NCBI GenBank assembly: GCA_964480285.1
Contig: CAYZPT010000001.1
Span: forward strand, 1-47,212
Reading direction: 5' to 3'
Length of the DNA stretch: 47,212 bases
Source of the DNA: an uncultured Bacteroides sp.
GTDB lineage: Bacteria; Bacillota; Clostridia; Oscillospirales; Acutalibacteraceae
Position 1 is the stretch's first letter. Each line of letters opens with the position of its first letter. This document shows positions 11,813 through 30,652 of this stretch, piece after piece. Below the pieces are notes generated by a model, which saw only the letters and a program-made list of their open reading frames with translations, was not told where the DNA came from and did not search any database. The position numbers and the translations under genes were made by a program.

Positions 11813-12023
11813 TGGCAGAGGTATAACAACCTGTCAAGTCATGGTAGTATTTGCTTCGCAAATCTCCACCTTAAAGACTTGACAGAACGTTGTTACGGGT
11901 TAAAAAGCATTTTAAACCTGTAATAAGAACTCACCCGTTTGCAAAATCAAAGATTTTGAACGGGTACCCGAGAACCTTGTTACTTCGTAATAAGGATTCG
12001 AACCTTAAATGACGGAGTCAGAG
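11813..12023 (-). pseudogene. Displaced 3' half of tRNA-Gln (distal att site), interrupted by a 167-nt insert
   Basis: 11813-11826 and 11990-12023 are identical to parts of the tRNA at 30753-30796 (anticodon loop to CCA). Confidence 0.9.
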
Positions 12024-12076
12024 CGTAGAACATTTATTCTAAAAGCCGCACCGTTGAGCCGTTTTTTGACCTTGCA

Positions 12077-12205
12077 GTCTCTGAAAAATCTCTCAAAAAA
12101 TTCTGAAGGCAGATGACCAGAATCGTCTGCCTTTTGTAATATCCTTTATTAATATATACGCTCTCAGCCTTAATGATTTTTCGCAGGGTCTCTCAAAAGT
12201 CACTT
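12077..12205. promoter_or_regulatory. Putative integrase arm-type repeats, left end
   Basis: GTCTCTGAA, ATCTCTCAA, GTCTCTCAA and GTCACTT resemble the GTCACTCAA repeats at 30546-30645. Confidence 0.55.
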
Positions 12206-12214
12206 TTCTGCGGA

Positions 12215-12718
12215 CTACGAAACGTAATCAAAAATCATTTCGGCAGTTTTTAGTGAAAGCTTTGATACATTGCCGTTAGTCAGGAAATCATTAACGTTCC
12301 CCGGATTGAGGTGCAAATCAGTATAAATGCGATAATTGGATATGTGCTTTGCCGCCTGCATTTCCCTGATTCTCGGAAGCATAAGATTTTTAGTGTGTTC
12401 TTCATTCTGAATTCGGTTTGTTTTTACCTTATATGAAGTATAAATCTTTTGATACCTTTCGGAAAGTAAGTTGTGTTCAAGAGCATTCTCAACGTTGCTT
12501 ATGAAATTCAGTTCATTCAGCGCGTTTACTATTCTGGCATTCTTAAACTTGGCTAACTGTTCATCATCAAGCGTCATTTTAGCATACAGAACCAGAGGTT
12601 CAAGCAATCTAAGATTATGCTCAACCTCTTTTTCAAGCTTTCTGACGGAAGAAGAACCACATAGCGAAAGCTCGGTTAAATATGCTTTTAAATAACCTTT
12701 GAACGTTAAGGGCTTCAT
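12215..12718 (-). CDS. Hypothetical protein with C-terminal HTH-like region; probable partner of the nucleotidyltransferase
   Basis: ATGA overlap with the upstream gene; ISNYRIYTDLHLNPGNVNDFL is HTH-like. Confidence 0.65.
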   Translation of the reverse strand: MKPLTFKGYLKAYLTELSLCGSSSVRKLEKEVEHNLRLLEPLVLYAKMTLDDEQLAKFKNARIVNALNELNFISNVENALEHNLLSERYQKIYTSYKVKTNRIQNEEHTKNLMLPRIREMQAAKHISNYRIYTDLHLNPGNVNDFLTNGNVSKLSLKTAEMIFDYVS

Positions 12719-13233
12719 TTTTTGAACTCCTCTTTGTAATCGTTATAAAAATCTCTTAATTCTCGTGCGGAATAATCGCTTGTCATACCTTCAATCGCTA
12801 AATCAACCAACTCGTCGAGTTTATCCCAGTCAATCTTCTGAACAACGGTAGGCTGATGTATATCTTCAAAATCCTGCTCTCTTCCGGAGGCGAGCTTTGA
12901 AACGACTAAGTCTTCTAAAGACAGGGTGTAAAAGTCGATTAGTTTCGTTTCCAAATCAATTTTATCTGCTCTTGAAGAATAATCATCTGCAAAACAACCA
13001 ATGTGAGCAGTAACATTCATATTCATATCGTATTTAGGCATCAGGGAGATAAGTTCATACGCAGTACAACGCAAAATATCAATGTCATGCGTGGCTCTGG
13101 GAATAAGACCCATAATCAACATTGCGCCACCGCCAACAATATAACACTCATATTTTATTTTGCTGCTTCCGTACGTAAAAAATGCATCTCTGTCAAATGC
13201 CAATAATCTTGAAAACAATTCTTCTCTGTCCAT
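12715..13233 (-). CDS. DUF6036/AbiEii-like nucleotidyltransferase
   Basis: IVGGGAM...RATHDIDI and DLVVSKL...GREQDFEDI motifs. Confidence 0.8.
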   Translation of the reverse strand: MDREELFSRLLAFDRDAFFTYGSSKIKYECYIVGGGAMLIMGLIPRATHDIDILRCTAYELISLMPKYDMNMNVTAHIGCFADDYSSRADKIDLETKLIDFYTLSLEDLVVSKLASGREQDFEDIHQPTVVQKIDWDKLDELVDLAIEGMTSDYSARELRDFYNDYKEEFKK

Positions 13234-13392
13234 AAATACTCCATAAATCAAAATTTCAATAATACTATTATTCAGTCATTAATTTCATTATATTCTATTA
13301 TAAATCACATGTCAAGAGTGAGCTTAATAATAATCAATAAAGAAAAACACCCACCTCATATGAAGCAGGTGTCCTCTTTGAGATACTAAGCT

Positions 13393-13586
13393 CTAATCCC
13401 AGTAAAACGGACCAAAGCCACTGTAATCAAAATCGTCAACATACGGAGCTTTCTTATTCTTCTGAGCTCGCTGATTCTGCTTGTTGGCTTTGTAAGCTTT
13501 GTTGTTAGGATTGTGCTGATTAGCATAATTATCTAACTGTGCTTGAGTGTGCGTTTTACCTGAAACGCCATTTTTTTCTTAGCCAT
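13393..13586 (-). pseudogene. Small Asn/Gln-rich protein (ANQHNPNN type), split by a one-base shift in an A7 tract
   Basis: RBS AGGAG and ATG 13586. Frame 0 stops after 17 codons. One extra A gives a 64-aa protein: MAKKKNGVSGKTHTQAQLDNYANQHNPNNKAYKANKQNQRAQKNKKAPYVDDFDYSGFGPFYWD. Confidence 0.7.
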
Positions 13587-13892
13587 AGCTTATATCTCCT
13601 TTCTCCACAGAAAGGTACATTTGATAGTTTCACGAGGTTTAACCTTTCGGCAACCGGGGACCGTACCTCCTGATTAGCAATGCACGCAGTATAGCCGTCC
13701 ACCGAGGGACCTATTTAAGCCGCCAATGCCCTACAAATCTTTTGGACATTAATTTGCAGAATACCCTGCATTAACTATTATCTGTGGGTTAGGAGCACAT
13801 TTATAGTTTACCTAGTCCAGTCAGTAAAGAATAAATATTGCTAATATTTATATATCACATTTTCAAATAATGCGCAAGCCCCTGGAATTGCC

Positions 13893-14323
13893 GCAAAAAT
13901 CATATTATGGAGTATCTTACCGCATCAAGTGTATACAGAAGAAAGAAAAGTCCGGAAAAAAGGAATAAAAAAACGGATACTAATAATGGGTTATATAGTC
14001 ACGCTTTCCCTCGATTAAAACGCAGTGTTTGCAAGGGTTTTAAGCGCTGTTTTTCGCTTAGCAAGGGTACAGTACCACTATCCGCAGTTTGGGGGTTGAA
14101 AGCGTGACGGTAAGGGCTTTGATGTAACGCTTATAAGCGTTTTAAACCCAGTGTTTTCAAGGGGTTTGTGACGCGATATTGAACACTTAAGGTAAAACCC
14201 CGCCTAGTGCCGTTTTCGGGGTTTAAAAGCGTTTCATAGACATTTAAAACGGGCTTATTATTGCAAAATCATCTTATGGAGTACCGTGCCGCACCAGATG
14301 TGGACAGAAGAAAGAAAAGCCCG
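13893..14323. repeat. Pair of ~60-bp imperfect direct repeats (13893-13954 and 14263-14323)
   Basis: GCAAAA(A)TCAT(A/C)TTATGGAGTA...CCGCA...ACAGAAGAAAGAAAAG(T/C)CCG present twice. Confidence 0.85.
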
Positions 14324-14669
14324 TTTTTTCAGCGTGAAAACGTACATATGATTTTAAATGGTTATTGTCCGTAATATTGGACCTTAATGTAGTTATTATT
14401 TACACGTGCGTTCATATATGTTACATTGACCTCGAAAGGAAATATTGCATACGGGGCAATGTGCTTCCGCGCAACGGGAACAGTAGGCAACAACTACAGG
14501 AACTTGCTGACATTCCCATTGCAGTATAACTGATTTTACAAAGCAACTATAATAATATAACAAAATAAGATAACATTAATCGGGGTTAGCTATTGAGGCA
14601 ATCCTGATTATTTCATTTTATATATATTGTGAATTTGTTGCATATATTGCAAATAATTGATAAATATTG

Positions 14670-14698
14670 TTGACATTTTGAAAATAATTTGATATTAT
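14670..14698 (+). promoter_or_regulatory. sigmaA-type promoter of the GHKL operon
   Basis: TTGACA-17 nt-TATTAT with TG upstream of the -10 box. Confidence 0.65.
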
Positions 14699-14730
14699 TA
14701 TGGCGTAACAACATTAAAGGAGTGCAAAAT

Positions 14731-14955
14731 ATGAGCGAATCAAAAAACGAAAAGTTTGTAAGAATTGCGGAAGCAAGAACCAATAAAATTATTGATATGA
14801 TTAGGTTGTTGGGTAATTGCTCGAACAGATCTACATACGACTATTCAAAAGATGATGTTAAGAAAATTTTTGGAGCTATAGAAAGCGAATTAAAACTTGC
14901 TAAAATGAAATTTGACGCTCCAGATGATTCATCTTCAAAGTTTAAACTCAGATAG
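14731..14955 (+). CDS. 74-aa helical hypothetical protein, first gene of the operon
   Basis: RBS AAGGAG; MSESKNEKFVRIAEARTNKIIDMIRLLGNCSN... Confidence 0.8.
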   Translation: MSESKNEKFVRIAEARTNKIIDMIRLLGNCSNRSTYDYSKDDVKKIFGAIESELKLAKMKFDAPDDSSSKFKLR

Positions 14956-14965
14956 GAGGTCCATT

Positions 14966-16873
14966 ATGGCTGAATGGTATTTTACTTCAAATGACGGAGG
15001 AGAAGTAAAAGGTATAAACGATTCAGGTGTTTCTACATTTAGAGGAACGCCTTTAAAATCATTAGCTAGAGAAATATGTCAAAACTCTCTTGATGCGGTC
15101 GATGACAAAGGTAAACCAGTAATCGTTGAATTTTCCGCATATAAAATTCCCACTACATCGTTCCCTGGGGCAGACTATTTAAAAGATACTTTTGAAAGAT
15201 GCATTGATTTTTGGAAAGATCAGACAGCAAAGACTACTAAAGAGACTTTCAAAAATGCAATTGATAAAATCAGTAGCAATGAGCTTAATATGATGAGAAT
15301 TAGTGATTTTAACACTAAAGGTTTAACTGGTTCTAAAAGAATTAAAGACATTAATACTGATTGGTACAGATTAATAAAATCAACCGGTTCTTCAGATAAA
15401 AAAGGTCCTGCAGGCGGTTCTTATGGTATCGGTAAATATGCTCCGTTTGCCTGTTCTGATTTTTTAACGGTTATTTATAATACCTATGATATTGAAGATC
15501 AATTTGCGTATCAGGGCGTTTCAAGACTGGTTACTTTTGAAAGAGAAGACGGTTGCACAACAAACGGTATAGGATATTTAGGAAACGAAAAGACTCAACC
15601 GGTCTTTGAGGCAATTCAATTGGATCCTTCTTTTTGTCGTAGTGTTGGAGAATATGGAACTGATATTTTTATTGCTGGTTACAAGTATAGTGAAAACGAA
15701 AGAGAACGTTGGGAAGATAAAATAGTTATTTCTGTTTTAGATGGTTTTCTTGGAGCAATATGGAAAAACAAACTAATAGTCAAAGTTGGAGATATTGAAA
15801 TAAGCAAAGCTTCACTTAACGATTTAATGGATGCTTATAGAGATGAACTCAACGATAAATATGTAACCGAGTACTATGATGTGCTCACTTCAAGCAAGAC
15901 TGTTTGGTTTGAAGAAGAAAACTTTTTTGGCAACGGAAAAGTTAGTTTTGGTGTGCTTTTATCTGATTCAGAAAAAGAATATCATCGCAAAGCTGCTATG
16001 ATTAGACAAACCGGAATGAAAATAAAGGATGCCGATAGGATTTCTACATTTGTTCAATTCGCTGCAGTAATGTTTATTGAAGGCGATAAAATAAACGAGA
16101 AACTCCGTGACATAGAAAACCCTGAACATACTGAATGGCAACCTGAACGTTCTGTTAGACCGTTAGAAGCAAAGACGCTTGTAAAAACCATTAATGACTT
16201 TATGAAAGAATCTGTGTCAAGTTTGATTGAACAAGATGCAAAAGATGAAATGGACGCAGTTGGTGCTGCAGACTTTGTTCCGGACATTCCTGAAGATTCT
16301 GAAAACAAAGAAAAAGATGAAGCTATAACTGATAAGGTGTTAAAGATTGATAAACGCACGGTGTCATCAAGAGCTCTTTCTGGGAACGCTTCTAAAGGCA
16401 ATACTCAAGCCGAAACAACAGAAAACGGCGATGTTGAGCCTGATAATGACAGCGATTATGAAGATTGGTATCATGATGATGATCCCCATCCAGAACCCGG
16501 ACCAGAACCGAAACCTAAAGGTCCAGTAAAAATAGTTGATGGTGAAAGAGAAGTAAAACGGACAATGGATGTAAAACCTTCTCAGTTTATACCCTATTGT
16601 TTAGATGCAGACCACGGAAAATATGCTGTTCTTTTCACGCCATCTGTAAGCGGAACCAACGGAAATATTCGGCTGTTCTTATCTGGTGAAACGGAGAGCT
16701 TCTCCGCTCCAATTATCTCAGTAACAAACGCTGATGGAAGTTCAGTAGAATTTAACAACAATAAAATAATAGGATTAAACTTTGAAAAGGATGTTCCTAT
16801 AAAGCTAATGATTGACATCGATTTCTATGATTATTGTTCAATGGAGGTGAAGGCAAGTGCAGATAAGGCATAA
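14966..16873 (+). CDS. GHKL (MORC/MutL-like) ATPase-domain protein
   Basis: N box REICQNSLDA, G1 ISDFNTKGL, G2 GGSYGIGK, G3 GTDIFI; acidic/Pro-rich linker near the C-terminus. Confidence 0.8.
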   Translation: MAEWYFTSNDGGEVKGINDSGVSTFRGTPLKSLAREICQNSLDAVDDKGKPVIVEFSAYKIPTTSFPGADYLKDTFERCIDFWKDQTAKTTKETFKNAIDKISSNELNMMRISDFNTKGLTGSKRIKDINTDWYRLIKSTGSSDKKGPAGGSYGIGKYAPFACSDFLTVIYNTYDIEDQFAYQGVSRLVTFEREDGCTTNGIGYLGNEKTQPVFEAIQLDPSFCRSVGEYGTDIFIAGYKYSENERERWEDKIVISVLDGFLGAIWKNKLIVKVGDIEISKASLNDLMDAYRDELNDKYVTEYYDVLTSSKTVWFEEENFFGNGKVSFGVLLSDSEKEYHRKAAMIRQTGMKIKDADRISTFVQFAAVMFIEGDKINEKLRDIENPEHTEWQPERSVRPLEAKTLVKTINDFMKESVSSLIEQDAKDEMDAVGAADFVPDIPEDSENKEKDEAITDKVLKIDKRTVSSRALSGNASKGNTQAETTENGDVEPDNDSDYEDWYHDDDPHPEPGPEPKPKGPVKIVDGEREVKRTMDVKPSQFIPYCLDADHGKYAVLFTPSVSGTNGNIRLFLSGETESFSAPIISVTNADGSSVEFNNNKIIGLNFEKDVPIKLMIDIDFYDYCSMEVKASADKA

Positions 16874-17708
16874 GTACTATACCTATCCGATTGTAGCCAA
16901 CAACAGCGATTCGTTTGAAAACGTGCAATTCGAAACAGATGCAGAATATTGCACCGAAGGATACGATGTGAAATTTACTCTAAGTGCAAGCATAAATGAT
17001 GAAAGCATAAAGGAGTTAATTAAATCTGGAAAGGCTTCATATGTTCATCATTTTGAATGTCCGCAAACATGTTTCAGAACAGCCGTTACCACTGACGAAG
17101 AAACTACTGAATATAAAATACATGAAAGTTTAATATGTGGTACTCTGCAAATATGCTCTTTAATTGTAGCTATTGATGATATTATCGGTTACAAAAGCGA
17201 TAATTTTGCTTCGCTTTATAGAGGCTTTCCGTACAACATAAAAAAAGGTTGCGTATTAGGAATTGGAAAGCAACTTGAAATAGATATAGAAAAAGAAAAA
17301 GAGGATTATGAGAACACTTCATCCATCTTCTCTTTGTTGCCCAATAAAGATGAAAACGAAACCACAATGAAAGTTGAAACAGGGAGGCACAAAATTCAAA
17401 TTATTGTTCCTGAAAAAAGCTATAACCAGTATAGGAACTTAAGAGCCAATCTTCAAATACAACCTATTATGCATGCTATGATTCTTATACCTGCATTGGT
17501 TCTTGTTTTAGAAGAATTAAAGAGCTCAAAAGATGATCTTTATACTTATGAAGACAAACGCTGGTTTAAGGCGTTAAAGCTGACTTGTAAAAGGTTTAAT
17601 GTTGAATTAACTGAAGAAAACATACAAAATATTGATTCATACGATTTGGCTCAAAAGATTATGGACTCTCCCACAATCAAGGCGCTCGAATTCCTTGCCA
17701 CAAATTAA
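16857..17708 (+). CDS. Hypothetical protein translationally coupled to the GHKL ATPase
   Basis: GTG start with GGAGGTG RBS overlapping the upstream gene; 283 aa, no motif recognised. Confidence 0.8.
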   Translation: MQIRHKYYTYPIVANNSDSFENVQFETDAEYCTEGYDVKFTLSASINDESIKELIKSGKASYVHHFECPQTCFRTAVTTDEETTEYKIHESLICGTLQICSLIVAIDDIIGYKSDNFASLYRGFPYNIKKGCVLGIGKQLEIDIEKEKEDYENTSSIFSLLPNKDENETTMKVETGRHKIQIIVPEKSYNQYRNLRANLQIQPIMHAMILIPALVLVLEELKSSKDDLYTYEDKRWFKALKLTCKRFNVELTEENIQNIDSYDLAQKIMDSPTIKALEFLATN

Positions 17709-17721
17709 GGAGGTGCATTGA

Positions 17722-18438
17722 ATGTTTGTAAAATTTATTTCTGAAGAAGACCTAGAAAAAGCACGTGCTAATTACAAAACGATTTCTAAGAATATTCTTA
17801 TTAAAGGTAATACAGACTTACAATCCATGTTCAACGATGAAAACATAATAAGAAATACTTCTATTGAAATTGAGGATTTTACTCTGGATATGTCACCAGA
17901 AAATCGAGTAAGCTCTGATTTTGAAAACGTGAAAAGAGTTTATGAACACATGAAATCCCTTTCTGTTTCAAAAGCTTCAGACGAAAGAATATGGGTAGCA
18001 TATGCATTGTCCGAATTTGTTGATTATATGAAATATCGTTGGATGCCAGACGGGGTTGGAAAGCGAATGGATAGATATTTCTTTTCAAGTAGCAGAAAGC
18101 GTGCTTTATTTAGACATGGTATAGCAAGGCTTTGGTGGATAGGATATTCAACATATGATGCTGATCGGGCAGATCCATATGAACTAACCGAGTTTGCTCT
18201 GAGTCATGACCAAGACTTTATTAACCAAATTCTAGATATTGGCTTTTCGAGCAACAAAACCATTTCCAGTGCTGTAATAACCGCTTTATATGATGCGGAA
18301 AAGGCTGGAGTTACCATAAGTCGTGATTTGGTGCGTGAAATCAGCAAATATGTAAATCTTCTTGGAGGCACATATGTATTAGATTGCTTGTCTAAAGAAG
18401 AAATATATGATAAGATAAAAGTAAGGATAAATTTCTAA
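17722..18438 (+). CDS. DUF6339-like protein
   Basis: ASDERIW...YMKYRW...RYF...RHGIARLWWIG pattern. Confidence 0.7.
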   Translation: MFVKFISEEDLEKARANYKTISKNILIKGNTDLQSMFNDENIIRNTSIEIEDFTLDMSPENRVSSDFENVKRVYEHMKSLSVSKASDERIWVAYALSEFVDYMKYRWMPDGVGKRMDRYFFSSSRKRALFRHGIARLWWIGYSTYDADRADPYELTEFALSHDQDFINQILDIGFSSNKTISSAVITALYDAEKAGVTISRDLVREISKYVNLLGGTYVLDCLSKEEIYDKIKVRINF

Positions 18439-18452
18439 CATAGGTGTAAATA

Positions 18453-21400
18453 ATGGCAGAATGTTTTAATTGCAATAGTATAATTGAAGATAATGCCGTC
18501 GAATGTCCTCTATGTAAATCTCCAAATAACATAATGAAACAAAATTTCATTAAATATATTGGTGATAGAGAAAGTTTGGCAGGATATCAGAAATCATATA
18601 AATTGGTATTGTTAAAATACATTATTGAATCGTTAGACCAACGCAAGGAAGCGCTGGTCTCTGCTGTTATTGCTAAAATTAGAAACTTTTATTTAAGTAG
18701 ATTTAATCAAGGATTATTGCCGGATATTGATGTTGATGAAAGAATTAGAAACATAGAATCTTCAAATGATTACGATGTTTTTGCTGTAATAAAGAATCAG
18801 CCTTATCACGTAATAAACGCAAAAGGCTTTCTTTATATCAATAGAAACTCAGAAGGAGACTTAGTGTTTGTATTCAATGAAGAAATTTCAAATTCTTTAA
18901 GTCAAAATGAGTTTGAAAAATTGTTGGATATTATTAATTATAAATTAAAACTCTATTATTCTACAAAGTTACATGATTCTATAGATTATACTAGTAACTA
19001 TGACGACATATCAATAACTGATAGCTCTCCCAATTCTCTACCGCAACAAAACGAAAATGATCTTGATAACAAGCTATTGAATACTGAGATTATTAACATT
19101 GACTCCTTAAGTACTAGATCAAAGAGAATTTTGCTTGGGCATAAAATTAATAATATTAGAGATTTGATTGCGTTCGACAATAATAACGGAATAGAATCAT
19201 TTAATATTCTTGGTTCAACAACATATCATGCTGTTATATCAGTTATTAATTCATACTATGCTTCAATAAAGTCTTTTCCTTTGAATAAACGATTAATAAG
19301 ACATCTGTTTTGTGATAAGTCCTATGCGAGTTTTGTTAGATACTGTCAAAACAACAAATTGAAAACCATAGAAGATTTGCAAAATTTTGATTTTGACCGT
19401 CTTATTGTATCGTTTGGTTTTGGAGAAGGTAAAATTAATCAGATTAAAGAAAAATATGCCGCAATTGTTAATGGTACAAACGAAAAAACAGACCAAAATC
19501 AAAATAGAGGAATAGTAAAGGTTTTTGAGGAAACGGTTATTATTGCAGAAAACAACAAGGCCCTTCCAGTTTCAATATTATCTCTAGTTGGTTTAAGTGG
19601 CAAAACCATTCTCAAATTATCTGATCAAGGATATCATAAACTAGAAGATTTGGGTAATGTTGGAAGAACTCAATTATCTAGATTATTTGGCGTACGAAAC
19701 AGCGAGAAAATATTCAACGCAATAAATGAGTTTTCCAAACCATTAATTGTTATAGCTAACGATGTTCTAAACTCCTTAAAAACTGAAAACAGTTTTAAGA
19801 TGTACGTTATGCGTTCAGAAAAACTTTCATTACAGGAAGTTGCAGATATTTTTAATTGCACAAGAGAACGAGTGAGACAAGTTGAAGTGAAACTGTCCAA
19901 CAAACTTAAACCGCTAATGCTTGGTCTCATAGAAAACTATTTAATCGATAATAATACCTGCTTTATTTCAGAAGAAAGAATTCTTGAAATATTTGATGAA
20001 GAAGACTTTGACAAAGTAATCATACACGTCTTAAAGAGCTGTGATGAAATTGAATATTTGAACTTTGCCAAATTGTTTTTAATAAAAAAAAGCGAATATC
20101 AAGACACATACAGTACTCTTTGTAAGGTAGCTAGAGATTTTATTGGAGATGGAAGAAACATCTTTAACGAATTAGATGCGTTAGAAGAACTGCTATCAAA
20201 TCTTGACTTTGAATTTATGAATGTGGATCTGTTTTTTGATTTGCTCATAGAGATGAATGCATATTTTTATGGGGATTTTGTCGCGTTTGAAAGACAAAGT
20301 TATTCAAAATTATGTGTAAAAGTTATTGAAAAAGAATTCAAAAACGGGATACATGTTTCAGATGATGACGAAATGAACAAGTTGCGCACCTTAACAATAA
20401 GCCAGTATGGAAACATACCGTTCCCAGAAAAGAATAGGGCTATTGCAGCAGCTATTTCAAAGCATTTGATATTATGTGGAAGAGGAACACTTACCTCAAT
20501 AAAAAATTTAAACTTTGATTTTTCCACAATTGAAAGCATTTCCAAATATATAGACGAAAGCCAACAAACATCATTTTACTATAGAGAATTGTTTGATGAG
20601 TTTCAAGGTGTTTTGTTTATTACATCTAATATTACAAACTATAATTGTCTTCATGGAGTATTGCAATATTGCTTTCCTGAAAAATACATATATTCAAGAG
20701 ATTTCGTTACGAAACTTGAATTTGATGGAAAAATAGAACCTCTTGAAAATCGCATTAATAGTTTTATTACAACCACAGGACATGCCGTAGGTAAAGATGT
20801 GTTACTTAAGGAATTCAAAGGGTGTTCTGATGTAATGATTTTCAATACAATCAACACAAGTAAACGATTAATTCAGTGGGACTATAATAGTTTTAATTCT
20901 GTTGATAATATAGCAATGTCTGAGGCTGAGTATTCTATTATTGCAGAAGGTCTTAATGTTATAACAAGTGAAAACAACGGATATTGTAGTGACTATTTAG
21001 CATTCAACTATGTTTGTAATAGTATTCCCGATTGGGTTATAAAAAATAGCATTACAAATAAATCCAATTTGTTTTATGTTTTATCAAATGTTTTTTACGA
21101 TTTATATGATTTTAGACGTCCACACATTGGCGAAAAAGGAAAGTATCCTTCGCTAAATACAAAAGATATTATTTTAAACTTGTTAGAATCTTCCAATATT
21201 ATCTCATATCGCTCTTTTTTAGATATAGCAAATCGTTTGGGTTGGTCAAGCATTACAACTGCTGCAACATTTACGGATATCGAGAGTTCCTATATACGTA
21301 TTGACGAAGATACTTATCTTCGTAAGAGCTTATTTATTATTTCAAATAGTGAAAAAGAAGAACTCGAAAACTATCTTGCTAAATATATAAGAGAAAACCG

Positions 21401-21761
21401 CTATCTTTCTTTGATTAATTATGACGATTACGACGAGCTTCCAACCGTTAACGATTGTGAATGGAATGAATTCTTGTTTGAATCAATTGTACAGAATTAT
21501 TTTGATGATTATCGTATTGTCCAACCAAAAGCAAAAGATAGAAGGTATGTGAAAAGTATAATAGTTGATGCACATTCTAAATATAATTCCATTGATGAAC
21601 TTGTGAGAGATTCGTTGGAATTAAATAACGTTTCTACTATTTCTGAGAGAAACTTACTTTCTTATATGATACTTAATGGTTTCACTAGAAAGGTTATTCC
21701 AAAAGAGATGTATATTTCAGATTGTTTTTACTATGAAGACGGATCCTTTACGGTAAAATAA
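18453..21761 (+). CDS. Large DNA-binding protein: zinc ribbon, RNA-polymerase alpha-CTD-like repeats, sigma70 region-4 HTH
   Basis: CFNC...CPLC; LSTRSKRILLGHKINNIRDLI and LSGKTILKLSDQGYHKLEDL; LSLQEVADIFNCTRERVRQVE. Confidence 0.75.
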   Translation: MAECFNCNSIIEDNAVECPLCKSPNNIMKQNFIKYIGDRESLAGYQKSYKLVLLKYIIESLDQRKEALVSAVIAKIRNFYLSRFNQGLLPDIDVDERIRNIESSNDYDVFAVIKNQPYHVINAKGFLYINRNSEGDLVFVFNEEISNSLSQNEFEKLLDIINYKLKLYYSTKLHDSIDYTSNYDDISITDSSPNSLPQQNENDLDNKLLNTEIINIDSLSTRSKRILLGHKINNIRDLIAFDNNNGIESFNILGSTTYHAVISVINSYYASIKSFPLNKRLIRHLFCDKSYASFVRYCQNNKLKTIEDLQNFDFDRLIVSFGFGEGKINQIKEKYAAIVNGTNEKTDQNQNRGIVKVFEETVIIAENNKALPVSILSLVGLSGKTILKLSDQGYHKLEDLGNVGRTQLSRLFGVRNSEKIFNAINEFSKPLIVIANDVLNSLKTENSFKMYVMRSEKLSLQEVADIFNCTRERVRQVEVKLSNKLKPLMLGLIENYLIDNNTCFISEERILEIFDEEDFDKVIIHVLKSCDEIEYLNFAKLFLIKKSEYQDTYSTLCKVARDFIGDGRNIFNELDALEELLSNLDFEFMNVDLFFDLLIEMNAYFYGDFVAFERQSYSKLCVKVIEKEFKNGIHVSDDDEMNKLRTLTISQYGNIPFPEKNRAIAAAISKHLILCGRGTLTSIKNLNFDFSTIESISKYIDESQQTSFYYRELFDEFQGVLFITSNITNYNCLHGVLQYCFPEKYIYSRDFVTKLEFDGKIEPLENRINSFITTTGHAVGKDVLLKEFKGCSDVMIFNTINTSKRLIQWDYNSFNSVDNIAMSEAEYSIIAEGLNVITSENNGYCSDYLAFNYVCNSIPDWVIKNSITNKSNLFYVLSNVFYDLYDFRRPHIGEKGKYPSLNTKDIILNLLESSNIISYRSFLDIANRLGWSSITTAATFTDIESSYIRIDEDTYLRKSLFIISNSEKEELENYLAKYIRENRYLSLINYDDYDELPTVNDCEWNEFLFESIVQNYFDDYRIVQPKAKDRRYVKSIIVDAHSKYNSIDELVRDSLELNNVSTISERNLLSYMILNGFTRKVIPKEMYISDCFYYEDGSFTVK

Positions 21762-21785
21762 AAAGGCAACATATGTTGCCTTTTT
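21760..21785. terminator. Bidirectional terminator between convergent operons
   Basis: AAAAAGGCAACATATGTTGCCTTTTT perfect palindrome. Confidence 0.8.
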
Positions 21786-23847
21786 ATATATCTGCATTGT
21801 TACCAACCGAGAAATCCATTTCAAAATGTTCATCATCTAGCTTAGTAAACCTAATACTATTTCTTCCATATTCGTCAAGATGTTCTTTAGTAACAAGTCC
21901 ATCGTTATCCATGCCTATTCTCTCTCGAATATAACGACCAATCTCAGAATTATCAAGAGGCGTAGTAAGTGCTTTATCGCCAGATTGTTCGACTCGCATT
22001 GTAAAGCATTGACCATCATCGGTTAAAACCGTAAAATGTCTCTTGTTTAGTGGGAAAAATCCACTTTTGGCAATTTTTGATGGTAGCGGAATATATGCTT
22101 GATATCCATTTCGACCTTCTCGCTGTCCCCAGTTAAGACCGGATGTTTTTGTAACAGTTCCGTTTTTGGAAATAAGCGGAAGGTCAACATAAATGTCTTT
22201 TTCGCTTGCTAATACAACGGATTCGTAACTTTGAGTTGGACTGTTTTTATAAATTCTGATATAGTTTTCTACTTCATTTGAATCACAATAGATGCTTCTG
22301 CCTTGAATTTTGTCACAATAGGCCATTGCATCGCCAGGATCACACTTCGCCATGAATTCACCACATCCTTGTGAAAACGCCTTTTGAGTGTAGTTTGCTG
22401 ATCCGGAAAAGCATTTAAATGGTTTTCCGTTCTTCATCCAGAGATATATTTTTGAGTGAACAGGAGGGGTTTGGTACACATATGAACAATAAAAATCTGA
22501 AAGGTCTGGCTGCACCTGATTCTGTTCTTGAATTGCCTTAAAGCCCGTATGAGAAAGTTTGTTTAATCCGTCATAAGGACACATTCCAACCGTAAGACGG
22601 ATGTTTATGGGTTGTAATCCAAGTTCTTTTATTTGTTGTATATGATAAGACACCATTGCGGGAGAAGCATATGCTGAAACTATGCGCAATTCATTTGCGC
22701 CTTCTCGTATGGGATTAAACAAAACTTCATCTTCAAGGTTGCTATCAAATTGCCACTTTATATCATCGTCGCCGTAGAAAAGGTATTCTGTAGCGTTACA
22801 CTCAACACTTGGATACTCTTCTCCTGCGAAAGAATTTAGAATTGCTTCAAAGATTATTTTAGCGCCTTCGCAAGGAACCGCCATGCCTATTTGTTTTCTC
22901 ACGGATTCTTTATTTCCGTAAAAAACAAAATCGTCTGGGAAAGTTTGCAATCTTGCTCTTTCTCTGTTCGTTAAAGCTCTATTTTCAGACCAGTGATAAA
23001 TATGAGTTCCTCCGCCACCGCTACCGGTAACGGTATATGCTGGCTTACTTGATTCAAGTCTTTTATATATTTGGCTAATTCTTGCTCCAACAACATTTAG
23101 TTGAAGATGTTCTGGAAGTTGTGCAGTAAAAGCATTTTCTCCCTCTTTAATGTAACTTAATCTTTCCATGACAGTCTGAGATTGTCTGGTCGGTTCGTTA
23201 TTTGCGGCATTATCCGGAATAGGAGGTTCCTCAATAGCTTGTTTACACGTTTTGATTTGGTACATCTCTGGTGAAGGAACCTTAAAGTCTATATTTTTCT
23301 CTTTTCTAATATCGTTACGAATGCCAACAATTATAATTCTATGCCGCGCTTGTGGTATACCATATTCTTCAAACTTGTATAAATGCGGGTATAATGTGTA
23401 ACCTGCATTTTCCATTTCTCTTAATATTTTAGAAAAAGTTTTTCCTTCGTTTGAATTTAAAAGCCCCCCTACATTTTCTGCCAAAAACCATTCAGGCTGG
23501 AATCTGGTTAATGCTTTAACCCCGTACGTGTATAAAGGACCGTAAGATCCTTCGATACCTTTTTGCTCTCCAACTTGACTATAGTCGTTGCAGGGAAATC
23601 CAAAAGCTAAAGCATTTATTGTTTCAAGTTGAGATAAATCCAGTTCTCTGACGTCTCCTTCATAAACGCTATTTCGACATTCTGGACAAATATTATTTCT
23701 GTATGTTTCACAAGTGTTATGATCATAATCGTTCGCCCACTTATGTGTTATTTTATACTTACTGTTTCTACATTGAGCATGAGTAGCCCCCCAAGCAATT
23801 CCGCCTGGGCCACAAAAAAGTTCACCTAATTCAAATGTTTTTTCCAT
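21784..23847 (-). CDS. dcm: DNA cytosine-C5 methyltransferase fused to an NgoFVII-family PLD restriction endonuclease
   Basis: MTase motifs LFCGPGG, GFPC, ENV, QARHR, RERARLQTFP, QIGMAVP; C-terminal half has PLD HSKIY...GSANYT and NWGQR...AYIPL. Confidence 0.88.
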   Translation of the reverse strand: MEKTFELGELFCGPGGIAWGATHAQCRNSKYKITHKWANDYDHNTCETYRNNICPECRNSVYEGDVRELDLSQLETINALAFGFPCNDYSQVGEQKGIEGSYGPLYTYGVKALTRFQPEWFLAENVGGLLNSNEGKTFSKILREMENAGYTLYPHLYKFEEYGIPQARHRIIIVGIRNDIRKEKNIDFKVPSPEMYQIKTCKQAIEEPPIPDNAANNEPTRQSQTVMERLSYIKEGENAFTAQLPEHLQLNVVGARISQIYKRLESSKPAYTVTGSGGGGTHIYHWSENRALTNRERARLQTFPDDFVFYGNKESVRKQIGMAVPCEGAKIIFEAILNSFAGEEYPSVECNATEYLFYGDDDIKWQFDSNLEDEVLFNPIREGANELRIVSAYASPAMVSYHIQQIKELGLQPINIRLTVGMCPYDGLNKLSHTGFKAIQEQNQVQPDLSDFYCSYVYQTPPVHSKIYLWMKNGKPFKCFSGSANYTQKAFSQGCGEFMAKCDPGDAMAYCDKIQGRSIYCDSNEVENYIRIYKNSPTQSYESVVLASEKDIYVDLPLISKNGTVTKTSGLNWGQREGRNGYQAYIPLPSKIAKSGFFPLNKRHFTVLTDDGQCFTMRVEQSGDKALTTPLDNSEIGRYIRERIGMDNDGLVTKEHLDEYGRNSIRFTKLDDEHFEMDFSVGNNADI

Positions 23848-24160
23848 TGTCAATTTCCTTCTTATGGTTAATTAAAAAATCTATTTCATTTTGTATATGC
23901 TTTAGCTCTTCAATGTCAAGAAGCTCTGTGTTTTTTAAATTTTGGTATGAATTTATTAGCCCAATGGCTTTAGAAGCATCAATAATATTAGAATCGTAAA
24001 AACGAAGAAGGGTGATTACATCATCAAATCGAGGAGAGAAGTTACCGTTTTCAATTCTTGACAGTCGGCTATTTGTTATTCCAGTTGCAATTGTAACTTC
24101 GCTCATCGAACACCCACGACTGCAACGCAATGCTGCCAAATAATCATTTATGCTATTCAT
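23831..24160 (-). CDS. XRE family HTH regulator (controller-like)
   Basis: SMSEVTIATGITNSRLSRIENG; overlaps the MTase start. Confidence 0.88.
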   Translation of the reverse strand: MNSINDYLAALRCSRGCSMSEVTIATGITNSRLSRIENGNFSPRFDDVITLLRFYDSNIIDASKAIGLINSYQNLKNTELLDIEELKHIQNEIDFLINHKKEIDNGKNI

Positions 24161-24187
24161 TATATCACCATAGAAATGTTATCATAT

Positions 24188-24239
24188 TTGCTGCGAAAAT
24201 GCAATAAAAATCCTAAAAATCGCTGCGAAATCGCAGCAA
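24188..24239. promoter_or_regulatory. Putative XRE operator boxes
   Basis: TTGCTGCGAAAATGCAATAA and GCTGCGAAATCGCAGC related palindromes upstream of the XRE gene. Confidence 0.55.
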
Positions 24240-24364
24240 CATCGCAATTGTATGAGTTTCTGTCCAAATAATGATACTGCCGAAAATAACAAATTGAAAA
24301 GCAAGAATTTCAATGTTATAATATAAAAACACATAATATCAAAACATATGGAGAAAAACTTAAT

Positions 24365-25147
24365 ATGAATAATGATTCAAAATACACCGATTTAAAATCA
24401 ACCTTAAAGGCTGTGGGTAAAAAAGTTTTTGTTGATTTCTATTATGATTTTAAGGATTCTCAAATTACAACCGATGAATTAGCTGAAAAGCTTTTTACAA
24501 ATAACCCTTTGTCAATATCTTCAGAACAACGTTTTAGGATTCCAAGAGCAAGACATATTTTTGAAACGAATCAGCAAATCGATGCTTTGAACATAATTAT
24601 TGAAAGCGGCAGACTCGCCTCTGATACAATAGAAAAAGCAAAAGAAATACTGACTAATGAAGTTACGGAACAGAAATTAATCAAAGAACATGAAGAAGAA
24701 ACAGAATTCATTCAGCTGGTTAATTCTGAAGTTGTATATAATAGCATTGAACAGGCTGAATATAACAAAAGCCAGAAAAGGCCTAAGTACGCAACGAGAA
24801 CTTCTGTACAACCGATAAGAGATATCAAGGTTTCAAGAAACGCTTTGTTCATGGCAGATTATCTATGTGAAATAGATAATTCTCATTATGTGTTTAAAAG
24901 AAAGAACAGTAACATCAACTATACAGAACCGCATCATCTGATTCCTCTATCTGCACAAAGAGACTTCCCGGATAATAGTTTAGACTGCGAACAAAACATT
25001 GTTTCATTATGTTGTAATTGCCATAAACAAGTCCATTATGGATCCGAAATTGATTCGATTCTTAAGCCGCTATATGAAAAACGATACAAATATTTGAAAG
25101 AAATCGGTATAGATATTACGTTTGACCGATTAAAAAAATACTATTAA
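24365..25147 (+). CDS. HNH endonuclease, McrA-like
   Basis: CEID..H...YTEPHHLIPL...NIVSLCCNCHKQVHYG. Confidence 0.85.
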   Translation: MNNDSKYTDLKSTLKAVGKKVFVDFYYDFKDSQITTDELAEKLFTNNPLSISSEQRFRIPRARHIFETNQQIDALNIIIESGRLASDTIEKAKEILTNEVTEQKLIKEHEEETEFIQLVNSEVVYNSIEQAEYNKSQKRPKYATRTSVQPIRDIKVSRNALFMADYLCEIDNSHYVFKRKNSNINYTEPHHLIPLSAQRDFPDNSLDCEQNIVSLCCNCHKQVHYGSEIDSILKPLYEKRYKYLKEIGIDITFDRLKKYY

Positions 25148-25163
25148 TTAATAAGGATTATCT

Positions 25164-25532
25164 ATGAAAAGTATTAACTACGAAAAACCGACGCAGGAGC
25201 GATGTGGTGATACGCCTGCATATCAGGAATACAAAGAGAAGAGCAAAGGTCGGAGTGCTGATGATAACGAGATAATCCAGCGCGAGATGATGGTTATCTT
25301 TTCTGAATTCGCTGCGCTTGATTGTTCTCATGCTGATGATTCTGCACAGAAACTTGTTGCAAAGTTGCAGCAGTTTATCACTGATAATTATTATACCTGT
25401 ACCGATGAAATCCTCTCAGGGCTCGGAAAAATGTACGCCGCCGAAGGCGAGTTCAAAAAGAACATTGATTCGTTTTCCGGCGAGGGCACTGCCGATTTTG
25501 TTTCGCAGGCAATACAAATTTATACACAATAA
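25164..25532 (+). CDS. TipAS antibiotic-recognition domain protein
   Basis: AQKLVAKLQQFITDNYYTCTDEILSGLGKMY...FKKNID..GEGTADFVSQAI. Confidence 0.85.
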   Translation: MKSINYEKPTQERCGDTPAYQEYKEKSKGRSADDNEIIQREMMVIFSEFAALDCSHADDSAQKLVAKLQQFITDNYYTCTDEILSGLGKMYAAEGEFKKNIDSFSGEGTADFVSQAIQIYTQ

Positions 25533-25599
25533 TTCATTCCCGTTTGGTTGTAAAAACCGAACGGGAATTTTGTTTGGTCGCACTTTCGTTCTAAAAAAC

Positions 25600-25628
25600 T
25601 TGACAAACAGCAAAACATTTGTTAGAAT
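25600..25628 (+). promoter_or_regulatory. Consensus sigmaA promoter
   Basis: TTGACA-17 nt-TAGAAT with TG extension. Confidence 0.75.
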
Positions 25629-25940
25629 AATACTGCAAACTGAACACGGAAAAGTCGGCAGATGGTTTCAATTTTACATAGCCCGATTATTTGTAAAAAT
25701 GATATGCTGCCCGCTTATATTTCATGGACATCATTGAGTTATCACCGGACTGGCTCCGGGGTGTTCCGATGCAGGCGATATGGTCTGAGCATGGATACAC
25801 GACTTGACATTGCATGAATAACTGTTCCTGTACCAAGGGGATAGTCTGTGCAAAACTAAGTCAGTGTGTTTCATCGCTCGGATTTTTTATTGCTGTAAGC
25901 GGGTCGGCAGAGGGCAAATCTGTAATAAAGAGGTGAAACC

Positions 25941-26255
25941 ATGTCTGATTACTATGAGCGCAATCAGCCGAAGCCGAGACCGCATTATTTTTCGCTGCCG
26001 AATGAGATTTTCCGTGAAGGTTTGACGCCATATGAATTCGTTGTCTATGCTTTTCTTGTCAGTGCAAGAGACCCGCGTAAAGACCTAAGTTACTGGTCCA
26101 TAAAGAACATAGCCGAGAACTGCGGTATGTGCAAAAACACTTGCAGAAAAGTGCTTCACTCACTTGAGAGCAAGGGTTACGTTGACATTTCAACTCGCTA
26201 TTTTGACCATGTTCAGCAGACCAATATCTACACCGTTATACGTGAGCATTTCTGA
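25941..26255 (+). CDS. Winged-helix protein (HTH_36-like, replication-initiator N-terminal type)
   Basis: YFSLPNEIF..LTPYEFVVYAFL...WSIKNIAENCGMCKNTCRKVLHSLESKGYV...TNIY. Confidence 0.78.
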   Translation: MSDYYERNQPKPRPHYFSLPNEIFREGLTPYEFVVYAFLVSARDPRKDLSYWSIKNIAENCGMCKNTCRKVLHSLESKGYVDISTRYFDHVQQTNIYTVIREHF

Positions 26256-26492
26256 TTTTTCGGCTATTTTTGACGAGTCGAAAATCAAGCAGGATAAAGG
26301 GGTATGTCGCTCAGTCGCGCCAAACCCCGAAAAACACCGTACGGCAACGCCGTTCGGGGGTTAGGGTGGTATGTCTGCTTTGAAAAATGGATATCAATTT
26401 GACATCCGATTTCAATTTTTTCGCAGTATAACACGCTGTTTCGGGATGTCTTTTTGACATCCTTATAACCTTAAGAAAAGGAAACAACAAAT

Positions 26493-26711
26493 ATGAAAAA
26501 AGATTCTTCCGAAATTAAGAGAATCGCCAATCAGATTAGTTCGCGGGAAGGGAAATACTTCTTCAACGCGAAGGAAATCTGCACGCTGTTCGGTATCTGC
26601 AAGGATACCGCGCGCGATGTTTGTAAGCACGTCACTCCCGTTACTCACGGCGGAATCCGCAAGTATTATATCGTTGATATTCTGGAGTATTTTTATTCTC
26701 TGAAAGATTAA
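26493..26711 (+). CDS. Small HTH protein, excisionase-like
   Basis: FNAKEICTLFGICKDTARD...RKYYIVDI, directly upstream of the integrase. Confidence 0.65.
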   Translation: MKKDSSEIKRIANQISSREGKYFFNAKEICTLFGICKDTARDVCKHVTPVTHGGIRKYYIVDILEYFYSLKD

Positions 26712-26783
26712 AAATTTATCTGGATATATCAAAGTCTCCGTGGTATTGTTTAGCTTGCCGCAGGGCAGAAAGGATGTGATATT

Positions 26784-27941
26784 TTGTCGGAAAGAAAGCA
26801 GTATGCGCTCTACGATAAAGACGGTAACTTTATAACTTACCGAATGACAAAGCGCATTAAAAATGAGCAGGGCGAGTACGATGTGCTGACTGCGAGGTCT
26901 AAAAAATCCGCGAAGGAATGTAGGCGCAGACTCGATGAAAAAATCGCACAGTATTATGTTGAACAGGAGGAACGCAAACACAAAGGCGTGTTCCCCGATA
27001 TGAAGTTCGGAAAGTTCGCTGACAACTGGTACAACCTTACCATTAAAGACGCGAACTGCAGTAAGGTCAACAAAGACAATTACCGAGGATATGTTTACAC
27101 GCATATCATTCCGTACTTCGGCGACTTCAAACTCTGCGACATCACCGAAGATGACTGCCAGCGTTTCATGAACAGGTACAAAGGCTACTCAAAAAAGTTC
27201 GCGATGAAACTCAGGATGACGCTGCGGCGAATTCTGAGAAAAGCGTTGAAGCAAAAACTGATTCCCGACAATCCCGCCGAAGACGTTGTGCTGCCGATGG
27301 TTACCGAAGGACAGCGCCGTCCGATAACCGACGAAGAACGCGCAATGATTCTTGAAACGGCGAAGACTCACTACGCAGGCACAATGGTGATGACCATGCT
27401 CTACTGTGGACTGCGCCCCATCGAAACCCGAAGGATGAAATGGGACTGGGTTGATTTCGAGAACAGCATTCTTACCGTAGGCAAATCCAAAACGAAAGCC
27501 GGAACGGGAAGAAAAATTCCGATACCGAATCAGTTGAAAGTTGCGCTGATGGAACATAAGCTCAAAGGTCAGAACGACGAATATGTGTTCGTTAAGTTCA
27601 AGGATTACAACAAGCCGCTTGACACCAACGCCTTCTATCACGGCTGGCATAACTTCTGCCGCGAGATGGATATCGCAAACGGCGCGAAGGTGTACCGCAA
27701 TCAGATTGTGGAAAGCGTGCTGGCTCCCGACCTTGAGCCGTATCTGCTGCGCCACACGTTCTGCACCGACTGCCAGGCAGCGGGAGTGCCGCTGAACGTT
27801 GCAAAAGAACTGATGGGACACAGCGACATATCTGTAACAGCAAAAATCTATACGCATATGGTAGACGAAGTGTTCGAGCAAAACCGCAAACGCCTCGCCG
27901 AATATGCGAATGAAAAAGAAGAACTGTCAAAGATGGCATAA
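26784..27941 (+). CDS. int: Tyrosine recombinase/integrase
   Basis: GLRPIE, KTKAG, YLLRHT (HxxR variant), LMGH, IYTH catalytic motifs; SAM-like core-binding domain. Confidence 0.93.
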   Translation: MSERKQYALYDKDGNFITYRMTKRIKNEQGEYDVLTARSKKSAKECRRRLDEKIAQYYVEQEERKHKGVFPDMKFGKFADNWYNLTIKDANCSKVNKDNYRGYVYTHIIPYFGDFKLCDITEDDCQRFMNRYKGYSKKFAMKLRMTLRRILRKALKQKLIPDNPAEDVVLPMVTEGQRRPITDEERAMILETAKTHYAGTMVMTMLYCGLRPIETRRMKWDWVDFENSILTVGKSKTKAGTGRKIPIPNQLKVALMEHKLKGQNDEYVFVKFKDYNKPLDTNAFYHGWHNFCREMDIANGAKVYRNQIVESVLAPDLEPYLLRHTFCTDCQAAGVPLNVAKELMGHSDISVTAKIYTHMVDEVFEQNRKRLAEYANEKEELSKMA

Positions 27942-28038
27942 AAGAATCAAGGCAACGGATTGCTCCGTTGCCTTTGATATTTGTCTGGACTTTGCATTCG
28001 AGTTGTGGTATTGGTTTGTGTTGCAAAGGAGTGATAAT

Positions 28039-28509
28039 ATGGCAATACTTAAAGACCTTTACAACGGAAACGTTAACCCGTGTGAGCTGGAACACCTTAA
28101 CACCAGTGAGGACTATAAAACGGCAATGTCGCGTGTTTGTGAAGCCTGTGAGGAGCTTGAGAAAACACTCACGGATGTTCAGAAATGGCTCTTTGAAAAG
28201 TATAATAAAGAGCGCGATTTGATGTCGCTGATAGTTGAAGAAGAAATCTTCAAAGAAGGGTTCTCCCTCGCTATGAGGATAAAAGAGGAGGTTAATGATA
28301 TGACTGAAATTTCAATACACAGAGATTTTGATAACCTGCCGTCAATGCTGACTGTTGCGGAAGCAGCGGATGTGCTTCGCGTATCACTCAATCAGATGTA
28401 CTATCTCATAGACAAAGACAACACTATTCCCGTGCTCAACCTCGGCAGGAAGAAGCTCATCCCAAGAGATGAACTGAAGGAGTGGATAAAGAAGAACTGC
28501 TATAGGTAA
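28039..28509 (+). CDS. DUF6809-like protein in frame with an HTH_17 excisionase (internal start at 28300)
   Basis: MAILKDLYNGNVNP...FKEGFSLAMRI then GAGGAGG RBS and ATG 28300; LTVAEAADVLRVS...LGRKKLIPRDEL. Confidence 0.75.
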   Translation: MAILKDLYNGNVNPCELEHLNTSEDYKTAMSRVCEACEELEKTLTDVQKWLFEKYNKERDLMSLIVEEEIFKEGFSLAMRIKEEVNDMTEISIHRDFDNLPSMLTVAEAADVLRVSLNQMYYLIDKDNTIPVLNLGRKKLIPRDELKEWIKKNCYR

Positions 28510-28555
28510 AGTAAAAACTCCCCTGCATTCATGCAGGGGAGCAACATATTAAGTT

Positions 28556-28777
28556 TTAACCTCTTGGTGGAAACGGGTCGTTGCCGTAAGAATTCTTCTC
28601 ACGGATTTTGCCGTTTCTGCCGTGAATAATTAACTCAGACTTATCGCGCATAGCAAGTTCACGTCCAAGCTGAATTGCTTGTGCTTGTGTATCTGTGATG
28701 TAACTTGCTCTTGAGTTACCTTCACCTTTAACTTGCCATGAACCATCAGGTCTTTGAGTTATGTGTTTATTTTTCAT
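28556..28777 (-). CDS. DUF2188 family protein
   Basis: HITQRPDGSWQVKGEG...TQAQAI...ELIIHGRNGKIREKNSYGNDPFPPRG. Confidence 0.9.
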   Translation of the reverse strand: MKNKHITQRPDGSWQVKGEGNSRASYITDTQAQAIQLGRELAMRDKSELIIHGRNGKIREKNSYGNDPFPPRG

Positions 28778-28796
28778 ATAGTTTTCCTCCAATTCA

Positions 28797-28907
28797 TTAT
28801 TTTAATATTGTTACTCTTCCGCAATGTGGGCATTTGCACGGATTTGTGAAAGGAATAACTTTTCTGCCACAACGGCAAAAATAGTAAGTATATCTTATTC
28901 GCTTCAC
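28797..28907 (-). CDS. 36-aa zinc-ribbon microprotein
   Basis: AAGGAGGTG RBS and GTG start; MKRIRYTYYFCRCGRKVIPFTNPCKCPHCGRVTILK; below the ORF-track cutoff. Confidence 0.65.
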   Translation of the reverse strand: MKRIRYTYYFCRCGRKVIPFTNPCKCPHCGRVTILK

Positions 28908-30646: not shown

Positions 30647-30652
30647 AAGAGA

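Follow-up and report, generated by a model that had tools for sequence, protein, structure and literature searches.

Organisation of the locus

The stretch of DNA analysed here (the window, 47,212 nt of contig CAYZPT010000001.1; all coordinates are positions in this whole stretch and not in the island within it) carries a five-gene operon built around a GHKL-type ATPase. This operon faces a gene in which a C5 methyltransferase (MTase) is fused to a phospholipase D (PLD) nuclease and a B3 domain (Table 1). The three central genes of the operon, which we call A, B and C or, together, the trio, correspond to PDC-M33, a catalogued phage defence candidate (PDC). An earlier sequence-only reading of the window had described five tightly spaced or overlapping genes behind one promoter in an AT-rich island, facing an XRE regulator and the fusion, with an HNH gene diverging from that pair; the open reading frames (ORFs), a promoter scan and the GC content bear this out. 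The ORFs were all recovered at the same coordinates, the intergenic gaps measure 10-14 nt, A and B overlap by 17 nt, and the GC content of the region is 31-39% compared to 40-55% in most flanking kilobases. The bidirectional terminator that the two groups of genes were thought to share held up on folding, the hairpin having z scores below -5 on both strands (-5.2 on the plus and -5.8 on the minus strand) with none of 200 shuffled sequences as stable on either strand. A pattern scan for terminators did not list this hairpin.

The promoter layout of the operon recurs upstream of homologues. In 32 of 45 segments upstream of the small (74-residue) gene, AATATT repeats lie just before the -35 box, and the motif is counted 49 times in the 45 segments compared to 10.7±3.3 in mononucleotide shuffles; the pattern suggests that the repeats are possibly an operator or an UP element. 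The 1.4-kb non-coding gap upstream of the operon contains, in addition, a 59-nt imperfect direct repeat (83%; 13896-13954 and 14265-14323) and further 20-nt repeats.

Table 1. Features of the operon, the facing genes and the element that carries them
Feature	Position	Strand	Basis
attL-like 34-nt direct repeat, copy of the 3' part of tRNA-Gln, left end of the element	11990-12023		identical to 30763-30796
Sigma-70 promoter-like site TTGACA-17-TG-TATTAT, AT-rich element before it	14670-14698	+	11/12 extended match
74-residue conserved basic protein	14731-14955	+	homologue in 50/80 loci
PDC-M33A, paraMORC2-type GHKL+S5 ATPase, 635 residues	14966-16873	+	PADLOC, fold, conserved residues
PDC-M33B, 283 residues	16857-17708	+	PADLOC E 3e-93
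PDC-M33C/DUF6339, 238 residues	17722-18438	+	PADLOC E 5e-80; Pfam DUF6339 E 4e-54
1102-residue optional subunit, sigma70_r4 helix-turn-helix (HTH)	18453-21761	+	Pfam; in 30/80 loci
Bidirectional intrinsic-terminator-like hairpin	about 21759-21788	both	perfect hairpin flanked by A/T runs
Fused C5 MTase (8-339), NgoFVII PLD (372-530; H466-x-K468 intact) and B3 (555-672)	21784-23853	-	Pfam, PDB search
XRE HTH	23831-24160	-	Pfam
HNH endonuclease	24365-25147	+	11/12 promoter site; Pfam
Tyrosine integrase of the element	26784-27941	+	Pfam
tRNA-Gln(CTG), contains attR-like repeat 30763-30796	30753-30826	-	repeat and tRNA search

The operon core and its proteins

A, B and C each match the corresponding PDC-M33 model over nearly its full length (A: E 1e-206, model positions 1-625 of 627; B: 1-280 of 289; C: 1-239 of 247), and the three genes are adjacent and in the same order. 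PDC-M33 is a candidate from PADLOC-DB 2.0; in the available text of the preprint, the PDC set is described as predicted and comprises 145 systems embedded in BREX, DISARM or type I restriction-modification (R-M) (Payne et al., 10.1101/2024.01.29.577857). The main text of that preprint, in the part available to us, makes no link between PDC-M33 and C5 methylases, and the models do not cover the 74-residue and 1102-residue genes, which match no PADLOC model. A full-text literature search found neither of the terms PDC-M33 and DUF6339, and the available part of PMC12418389 makes no mention of M33, PDC-M, GHKL or MORC. The sequence-only reading had proposed an undescribed system. This does not stand, since the trio is PDC-M33 and the ATPase fits paraMORC2 (see below); the locus is not a new system and its core is already catalogued. 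What it adds is a five-gene subtype that faces an MTase-PLD-B3 fusion, together with evidence against the ATPase as a motor for the nuclease.

Pfam gives no support for the earlier assignment of the 635-residue protein A to the GHKL ATPases, but the fold confirms it. Foldseek matched the structure model of A (pLDDT 75) to Hsp90 and MORC3 (E about 1e-7), and VIA matched it to SMCHD1 (Z 15.6, root-mean-square deviation (rmsd) 4.1, 309 aligned) and MORC3 (Z 14.6, rmsd 4.8, 300 aligned) as well as GRP94, MORC2 and MutL (range Z 13-16, rmsd 4-5, about 290-310 aligned). In the model, the GHKL and S5 domains (residues about 10-430) are followed by a disordered acidic/Pro linker (about 430-530) and a C-terminal beta-sandwich (about 533-633); the sandwich, a common arrangement, reaches Z values of up to 7.6 in VIA. 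All 102 sequences compared share E36, D43, D114, G119, G151, G154, G156, R347, E384 and H388, and 101 of them have N40. Judged from the model, A has a GHKL+S5 fold with its ATP-site residues intact. PDB sequence searches with A, B and C gave no significant match, and profile comparison of A with B, with the MORC proteins of Z1-AIPR operons and with MutL found no similarity. Because the comparison with MutL was empty, we regard the parallel between the ENPEHTEW motif and the HPxKxEV loop of MutL (that of relatives) as a motif-level lead.

A fits paraMORC2, which Iyer, Abhiman and Aravind (2008; PMC2292703), in the text available to us, define by GHKL and S5 domains with a strongly conserved ExxxH toward the end of S5. 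In A, this motif is the invariant pair E384/H388 that ends S5; Gram-positive hosts are shared, and the homologous loci have in common with paraMORC2 their R-M neighbourhoods with C5 methylase and Vsr. However, the same text names no B or DUF6339 partners, and the superfamily 2 (SF2) helicase of paraMORC2 is not found here.

B keeps the motif HxEC...TxxR across its homologues and belongs to no known family besides PDC-M33B; it is likely to be an adaptor. C is mostly helical in its model (pLDDT 92) and has conserved Asp/Arg/Trp motifs (SDERxW and RLWWxG). Neither Foldseek (PDB, viral) nor VIA gave a clear structural match for C, from which neither a new nor a different fold follows. An AlkD-like HEAT-repeat glycosylase was considered for DUF6339; with regard to a HEAT-like repeat fold, the best VIA match is to a designed helical protein (Z 6.9, rmsd 3.2, 72 aligned). 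We consider C a candidate DNA-binding or effector subunit. Fused forms provide weak evidence: no longer form of B was found among 7992 candidates, and two among 7997 (P0121 and P0122) join DUF6339 through a long linker to a PDC-S61 domain, which has a weak match to a PD-(D/E)xK model.

The 74-residue protein has no match in Pfam, PADLOC or NCBIfam and a weak one to phrog_35258 only; it is likely to be a transcriptional controller. Two related loci have the small gene twice (L002:19419-19649 and L005:11078-11311); the extra copy is preceded by a promoter of its own and is located upstream of XRE, beyond the fusion. The 1102-residue protein has a sigma70-r4 HTH at 456-486 and a conserved core at 454-1085, and its homologues add RpoA-CTD and HhH matches (repeats).

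Conservation of the trio and exchange of its partners

A GTDB scan with the single ATPase sequence found nothing, but a scan with an alignment succeeded, and the counts that follow refer to the best 80 of 310 ATPase relatives, a sample biased to close Bacillota. The trio is complete in 68 of the 80 loci, most of the misses being at contig ends. Thirty loci have the large gene and 12 have Vsr; the small gene was called in 50 (the ORF caller undercounts small genes). In 61 loci, a C5 MTase is found within 3.5 kb; the Dcm-PLD-B3 fusion occurs in eight and a lone, insert-bearing C5 MTase in 29, and 18 of the 24 loci with another MTase also have a recognisable restriction endonuclease (REase). The partners, with REases called from Pfam and PADLOC, vary even among close ATPases (fusion, AlwI/FokI-like, EcoRII-C, HpaII, LlaJI, Sau3AI/MutH, a B3-bearing REase_II, PLD-B3, lone MTase, type I, none). 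The 153 neighbour ORFs (one per cluster) comprise 137 plus 10 that were scanned and 6 unscanned; since several have no family, "no REase" means that none was recognised. On the ATPase tree the partner types interleave and the fusion appears in two clades. The ATPase of one locus (L003) falls within the fusion-linked group on this tree, but the R-M beside it is another one; at one Veillonella site the trio is kept and the downstream cassette changes.

The order of the trio is the same in all seven plasmid loci (from 27 plasmid records; Bacillota, Deinococcus, Actinomycetota and Halobacteria) and in all eight viral-contig loci. Five of the plasmid loci have a C5 MTase (beside Sau3AI/MutH, EcoRII-C, AlwI+Vsr, Vsr+NOV_C, or unknown genes) and two an N6-type MTase; two of the viral-contig loci have a C5 MTase, and one trio stands directly before a prophage lysin gene (L292). 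Two loci hold two trios each (L071 and, on a Halorussus plasmid, L086, where they diverge around a dcm gene), and on a Ligilactobacillus salivarius plasmid (L083) A is split between two ORFs and a group II intron interrupts B.

Among 61 related genomes the ATPase family has three matches, and among 401 genomes of the phylum it has eight (own genome counted; one phylum match is weak); it is therefore patchy and mobile. An unbiased draw of 400 phylum genomes makes the link to C5 methylases look weaker: it gave six full-length hits, one of which has an adjacent C5 MTase and an unfused PLD-B3 gene (L205). Four of the other five genomes, one of them a single-contig genome, have no PF00145 match at all, which indicates that the trio can be carried without a detectable 5-methylcytosine (5mC) writer. 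A, B and C keep their order and co-diverge (Mantel rho 0.87 for A-B and 0.85 for A-C); the restriction partner is swapped freely or absent.

The sequence-only reading had allowed that the GHKL module is an independent anti-phage system. The neighbourhoods of the homologues support a conserved GHKL operon linked to C5-methylase R-M, and an independent anti-phage unit is plausible. We favour, at somewhat short of an even chance, the view that the operon is an autonomous anti-phage unit of the PDC-M33 family and that the fusion is a self-contained R-M enzyme and not its client. The cassette is best read as an ATP-clamp defence that hitchhikes with 5mC restriction-modification on mobile islands.

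The facing methylase-nuclease fusion

The fusion is the sole C5 MTase found in its own genome (90% complete), in which neither Z1 nor Vsr was found. Six of the eight fusion genes have an XRE homologue before them, and the other two have a small gene from a different cluster in that place; XRE is likely to control the fusion gene. The HNH gene, which has a weak match to a type IV methyl-directed REase model (E 7e-9), is present in three of the eight fusion loci and is a variable passenger. Site counts in the genome did not identify the target of the MTase. GGCC is strongly depleted in this genome (observed/expected 0.12), and CCGG and CCWGG are moderately so.

NgoAVII/CglI systems (PMC4267654) share with the fusion a C5 MTase and a PLD-B3 nuclease with an HxK site. 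Here, however, PLD-B3 is fused to the MTase, a Z1 helicase is absent, and the PLD is distant from R.NgoAVII (4RCT; E 4e-5, compared to 3e-40 for a Z1-linked PLD-B3 from another locus, L171). As had been noted from the sequence, the island encodes no helicase-like ATPase (no helicase or Z1 gene by Pfam), and membership of the NgoAVII/CglI type was rejected because no DEAD-Z1 ATPase gene was found in the island or the 90%-complete genome. In the available text of PMC4267654, R.NgoAVII needs its ATPase and BfiI, with the same PLD and B3 domains, needs none. BfiI shares with the fusion a PLD-B3 architecture without an ATPase gene, but it gave no sequence match in the PDB search and the fusion adds a C5 MTase; a BfiI-like action is suggested by analogy.

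For want of a helicase, the sequence-only reading had also considered the GHKL module as an alternative motor for the PLD nuclease, that is, a dedicated replacement for the DEAD-Z1 subunit. The genome has no Z1 gene, all eight fused Dcm-PLD-B3 genes in the homologous loci face the trio plus the large gene, and the trio also stands with an unfused PLD-B3 in L009 and L205. Yet these fusions turned up only in searches around the trio and make up a minority of its loci, and L003, within a fusion-linked branch, has another R-M. A metagenome scan with the fusion (best 80 of 82 loci) gave 46 loci with an ORF matching PLD and B3; there is no fused form and no trio gene among them, and Z1 is present in 34. 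These loci are not independent, because they form 9 clusters at 90% identity and 31 of them are one element. Loci with Z1 usually carry a second NgoFVII gene (L130 is the exception), and the PLD-B3 type of the window also stands with only its MTase in L121/L122/L162, in L198 and on a complete 14-kb plasmid. Because BfiI works ATPase-free and the window type can stand with the MTase only, the premise that the PLD of the fusion lacks a needed motor is not established. Given the few fusion loci, the 46 PLD-B3 loci without a trio and the distance from R.NgoAVII, the motor idea is poorly supported and we consider it highly improbable; the fusion is likely to be a self-contained R-M enzyme and not a client of the ATPase.

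Three loci of the same scan (L166, L168 and L169) do contain trio or large genes; these stand next to the same MTase clade, but the REases there are FokI-like. In L126 and about 30 metagenome loci that resemble it, one operon combines a C5 MTase and Vsr with a Z1 helicase and two different PLD-B3 genes. In L127 and L128, the partner of the same MTase clade is a McrBC-like pair, the AAA subunit of which has a B3 domain of the NgoFVII type.

A relation of the ATPase and the ~280-residue protein to Azaca had been suggested tentatively. Azaca consists, in the available text of its preprint, of ZacA (DUF6361), ZacB (PLD) and ZacC (SF2 helicase) (10.1101/2025.07.10.664194). Three genes and a nearby PLD nuclease are shared, but the composition differs; the island has no DUF6361, no helicase and no match to a Zac or Azaca model, and we rejected membership.

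The link to C5 methylases

Several observations weigh against the autonomous unit that we favour. Of the 38 informative loci, in which the trio is complete and each side extends for at least 3.5 kb, 33 have a C5 MTase within 3.5 kb (17 lone 530-residue, 11 other, 5 fusion) and five have none; a trio gene, by comparison, is found in none of 69 generic C5-MTase loci in viral contigs, so the link is stronger than casual co-location on islands. The lone trios may be inactive relics. The trio meets PLD-B3 in several lineages (the two fusion clades and the two unfused loci). A Z1 helicase near 34 of the 46 window-type PLD-B3 genes speaks against taking stand-alone cutting as proven. In A, B and C, neither a nuclease nor another effector domain was recognised. 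Finally, distances of the lone MTase track those of A (Mantel rho 0.86, n=27, 0/2000 permutations). Of course, this co-divergence shows long co-inheritance and not function, as a single mobile cassette passed on as a whole produces such a signal too.

The lone partner is an intact C5-type MTase of 530 residues with a poorly conserved insert of about 170. In viral contigs, six of ten loci of its clade follow a four-gene MORC-Z1-DUF4420-AIPR operon and one follows Z1-DUF4420-AIPR (for L212, Pfam assigned all four genes; the other loci were assigned from gene size and order, alignment and a single AIPR check); of the remaining three, one stands before the trio, one with Vsr and an AspBHI-like gene, and one at a contig edge. 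Because it also ends such operons, the insert-bearing clade (L212-L220) may be specialised for GHKL-type systems, and because it pairs with both, the trio may fill the slot of the Z1-DUF4420-AIPR restriction module. These viral-contig loci are the best support for the proposal that the trio is the restriction arm of a new R-M type, which attacks DNA without the self mark of the neighbouring methylase (here the fusion MTase). The co-divergence with A fits this proposal, as do the trios with a lone MTase and no recognised REase (29 of 80 loci, 17 of the 38 informative ones). It sits badly with four of five MTase-free trios lying in genomes without a C5 MTase match, with partner REases (and presumably target sites) that change while the trio does not, and with structure models in which no nuclease fold was identified in A or C; we judge it unlikely. 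In its fullest form, a paraMORC ATP clamp, an adaptor and a DUF6339 effector of unmatched fold would read the self mark of an interchangeable methylase; here, with the methylase fused to a PLD nuclease as a second effector, one mark would guard both, and the sigma-r4/RpoA-CTD-type subunit would couple the system to transcription; such a class of R-M we likewise think doubtful.

MZA (mzaABCDE) resembles the locus as a GHKL ATPase operon with a sigma70-r4 protein, and the insert-bearing MTase clade is shared with MORC-Z1-DUF4420-AIPR operons; the 1102-residue protein matches MzaA weakly (E 3e-4, HTH only). The present locus differs in that it has no Z1, DUF4420 or AIPR gene, and A lacks profile similarity to the MORC of those operons. 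We take Z1, DUF4420 and AIPR beside the GHKL gene to be the composition of MZA, which was not found here. MzaD is described as a nuclease in the available text of the MZA-T4 study.

A trio that serves as a general ATP-driven helper, looping DNA or loading enzymes for any adjacent C5 R-M, would explain the methylase next to most informative loci and the recognisable REases beside the other MTases, and it has precedents in the paraMORC looping model (PMC2292703) and, by analogy, in MtsAB of MANTIS, an ATPase-loaded MTase (both in the parts of the sources available). However, the partners are structurally unrelated families that are also found without the trio, and lone trios exist. We give this explanation a low probability.

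MutL assists Vsr, and the MutL-like fold of A together with Vsr in 12 of the 80 loci raises the thought of a non-defence maintenance module that repairs or relieves damage from C5 methylation (T:G mismatches, trapped methylase). C has a feature-level look-alike that bears the automatic name DNA alkylation repair protein (score 0.91), which is a lead only. Trios in genomes without a C5 MTase match, the absence of Vsr from the own genome and the patchy, mobile distribution all speak against such a module, which we regard as very improbable indeed.

Proposed mode of action

For the autonomous unit, we infer that A forms a clamp, that the subunits bind one another, that C reads DNA, that the operon regulates itself and that the whole acts against phages. 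Like MORC and MutL, A would become a DNA clamp by dimerising on ATP. B would be held by the linker and the C-terminal beta-sandwich of A and would recruit C; the conserved Arg/Trp/Asp residues of C may read or attack invading DNA so that phage replication is blocked. Through the AATATT repeats that precede the -35 box, the 74-residue gene could control its own operon. For the 1102-residue protein, we suggest an optional role as a scaffold that binds DNA, similar to the sigma70-type MzaA of MZA. The fusion would methylate and cut at a site read by B3, standing alone like BfiI, and on mobile islands the cassette would accompany 5mC systems and add a second layer to them.

A part in restriction-like immunity has been predicted for prokaryotic MORC and paraMORC ATPases since 2008 (PMC2292703), and in the available text of the 2026 Tiamat preprint MORC restriction-like immunity is still a proposal. 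The cassette offers a compact case that lacks a helicase, and for neither of its two partner proteins is there a relative of solved structure. The natural series of lone trio, trio with lone MTase and trio with varied REases, with or without the large gene, makes dependence on a methyl mark testable.

The mobile element

The perfect 34-nt repeat, the tyrosine integrase and tRNA-Gln delimit an integrated element of about 18.8 kb. The element (11990-30826) also encodes an excisionase-like 72-residue ORF and an HTH_36 gene. A DUF6036 nucleotidyltransferase and a 167-residue gene (12215-13251, minus strand) lie behind a 12/12 promoter site, and the pair looks like a type IV toxin-antitoxin or AbiE-like pair. 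An AbiLi/AriA-like ABC ATPase (29114-30397, minus strand; PADLOC E 2e-61) has no obvious partner gene downstream, and a 78-residue ORF (28556-28792) lies near it. An isolated TipAS domain is encoded at 25164-25532; in L006, a full MerR-TipAS gene stands upstream of the trio.

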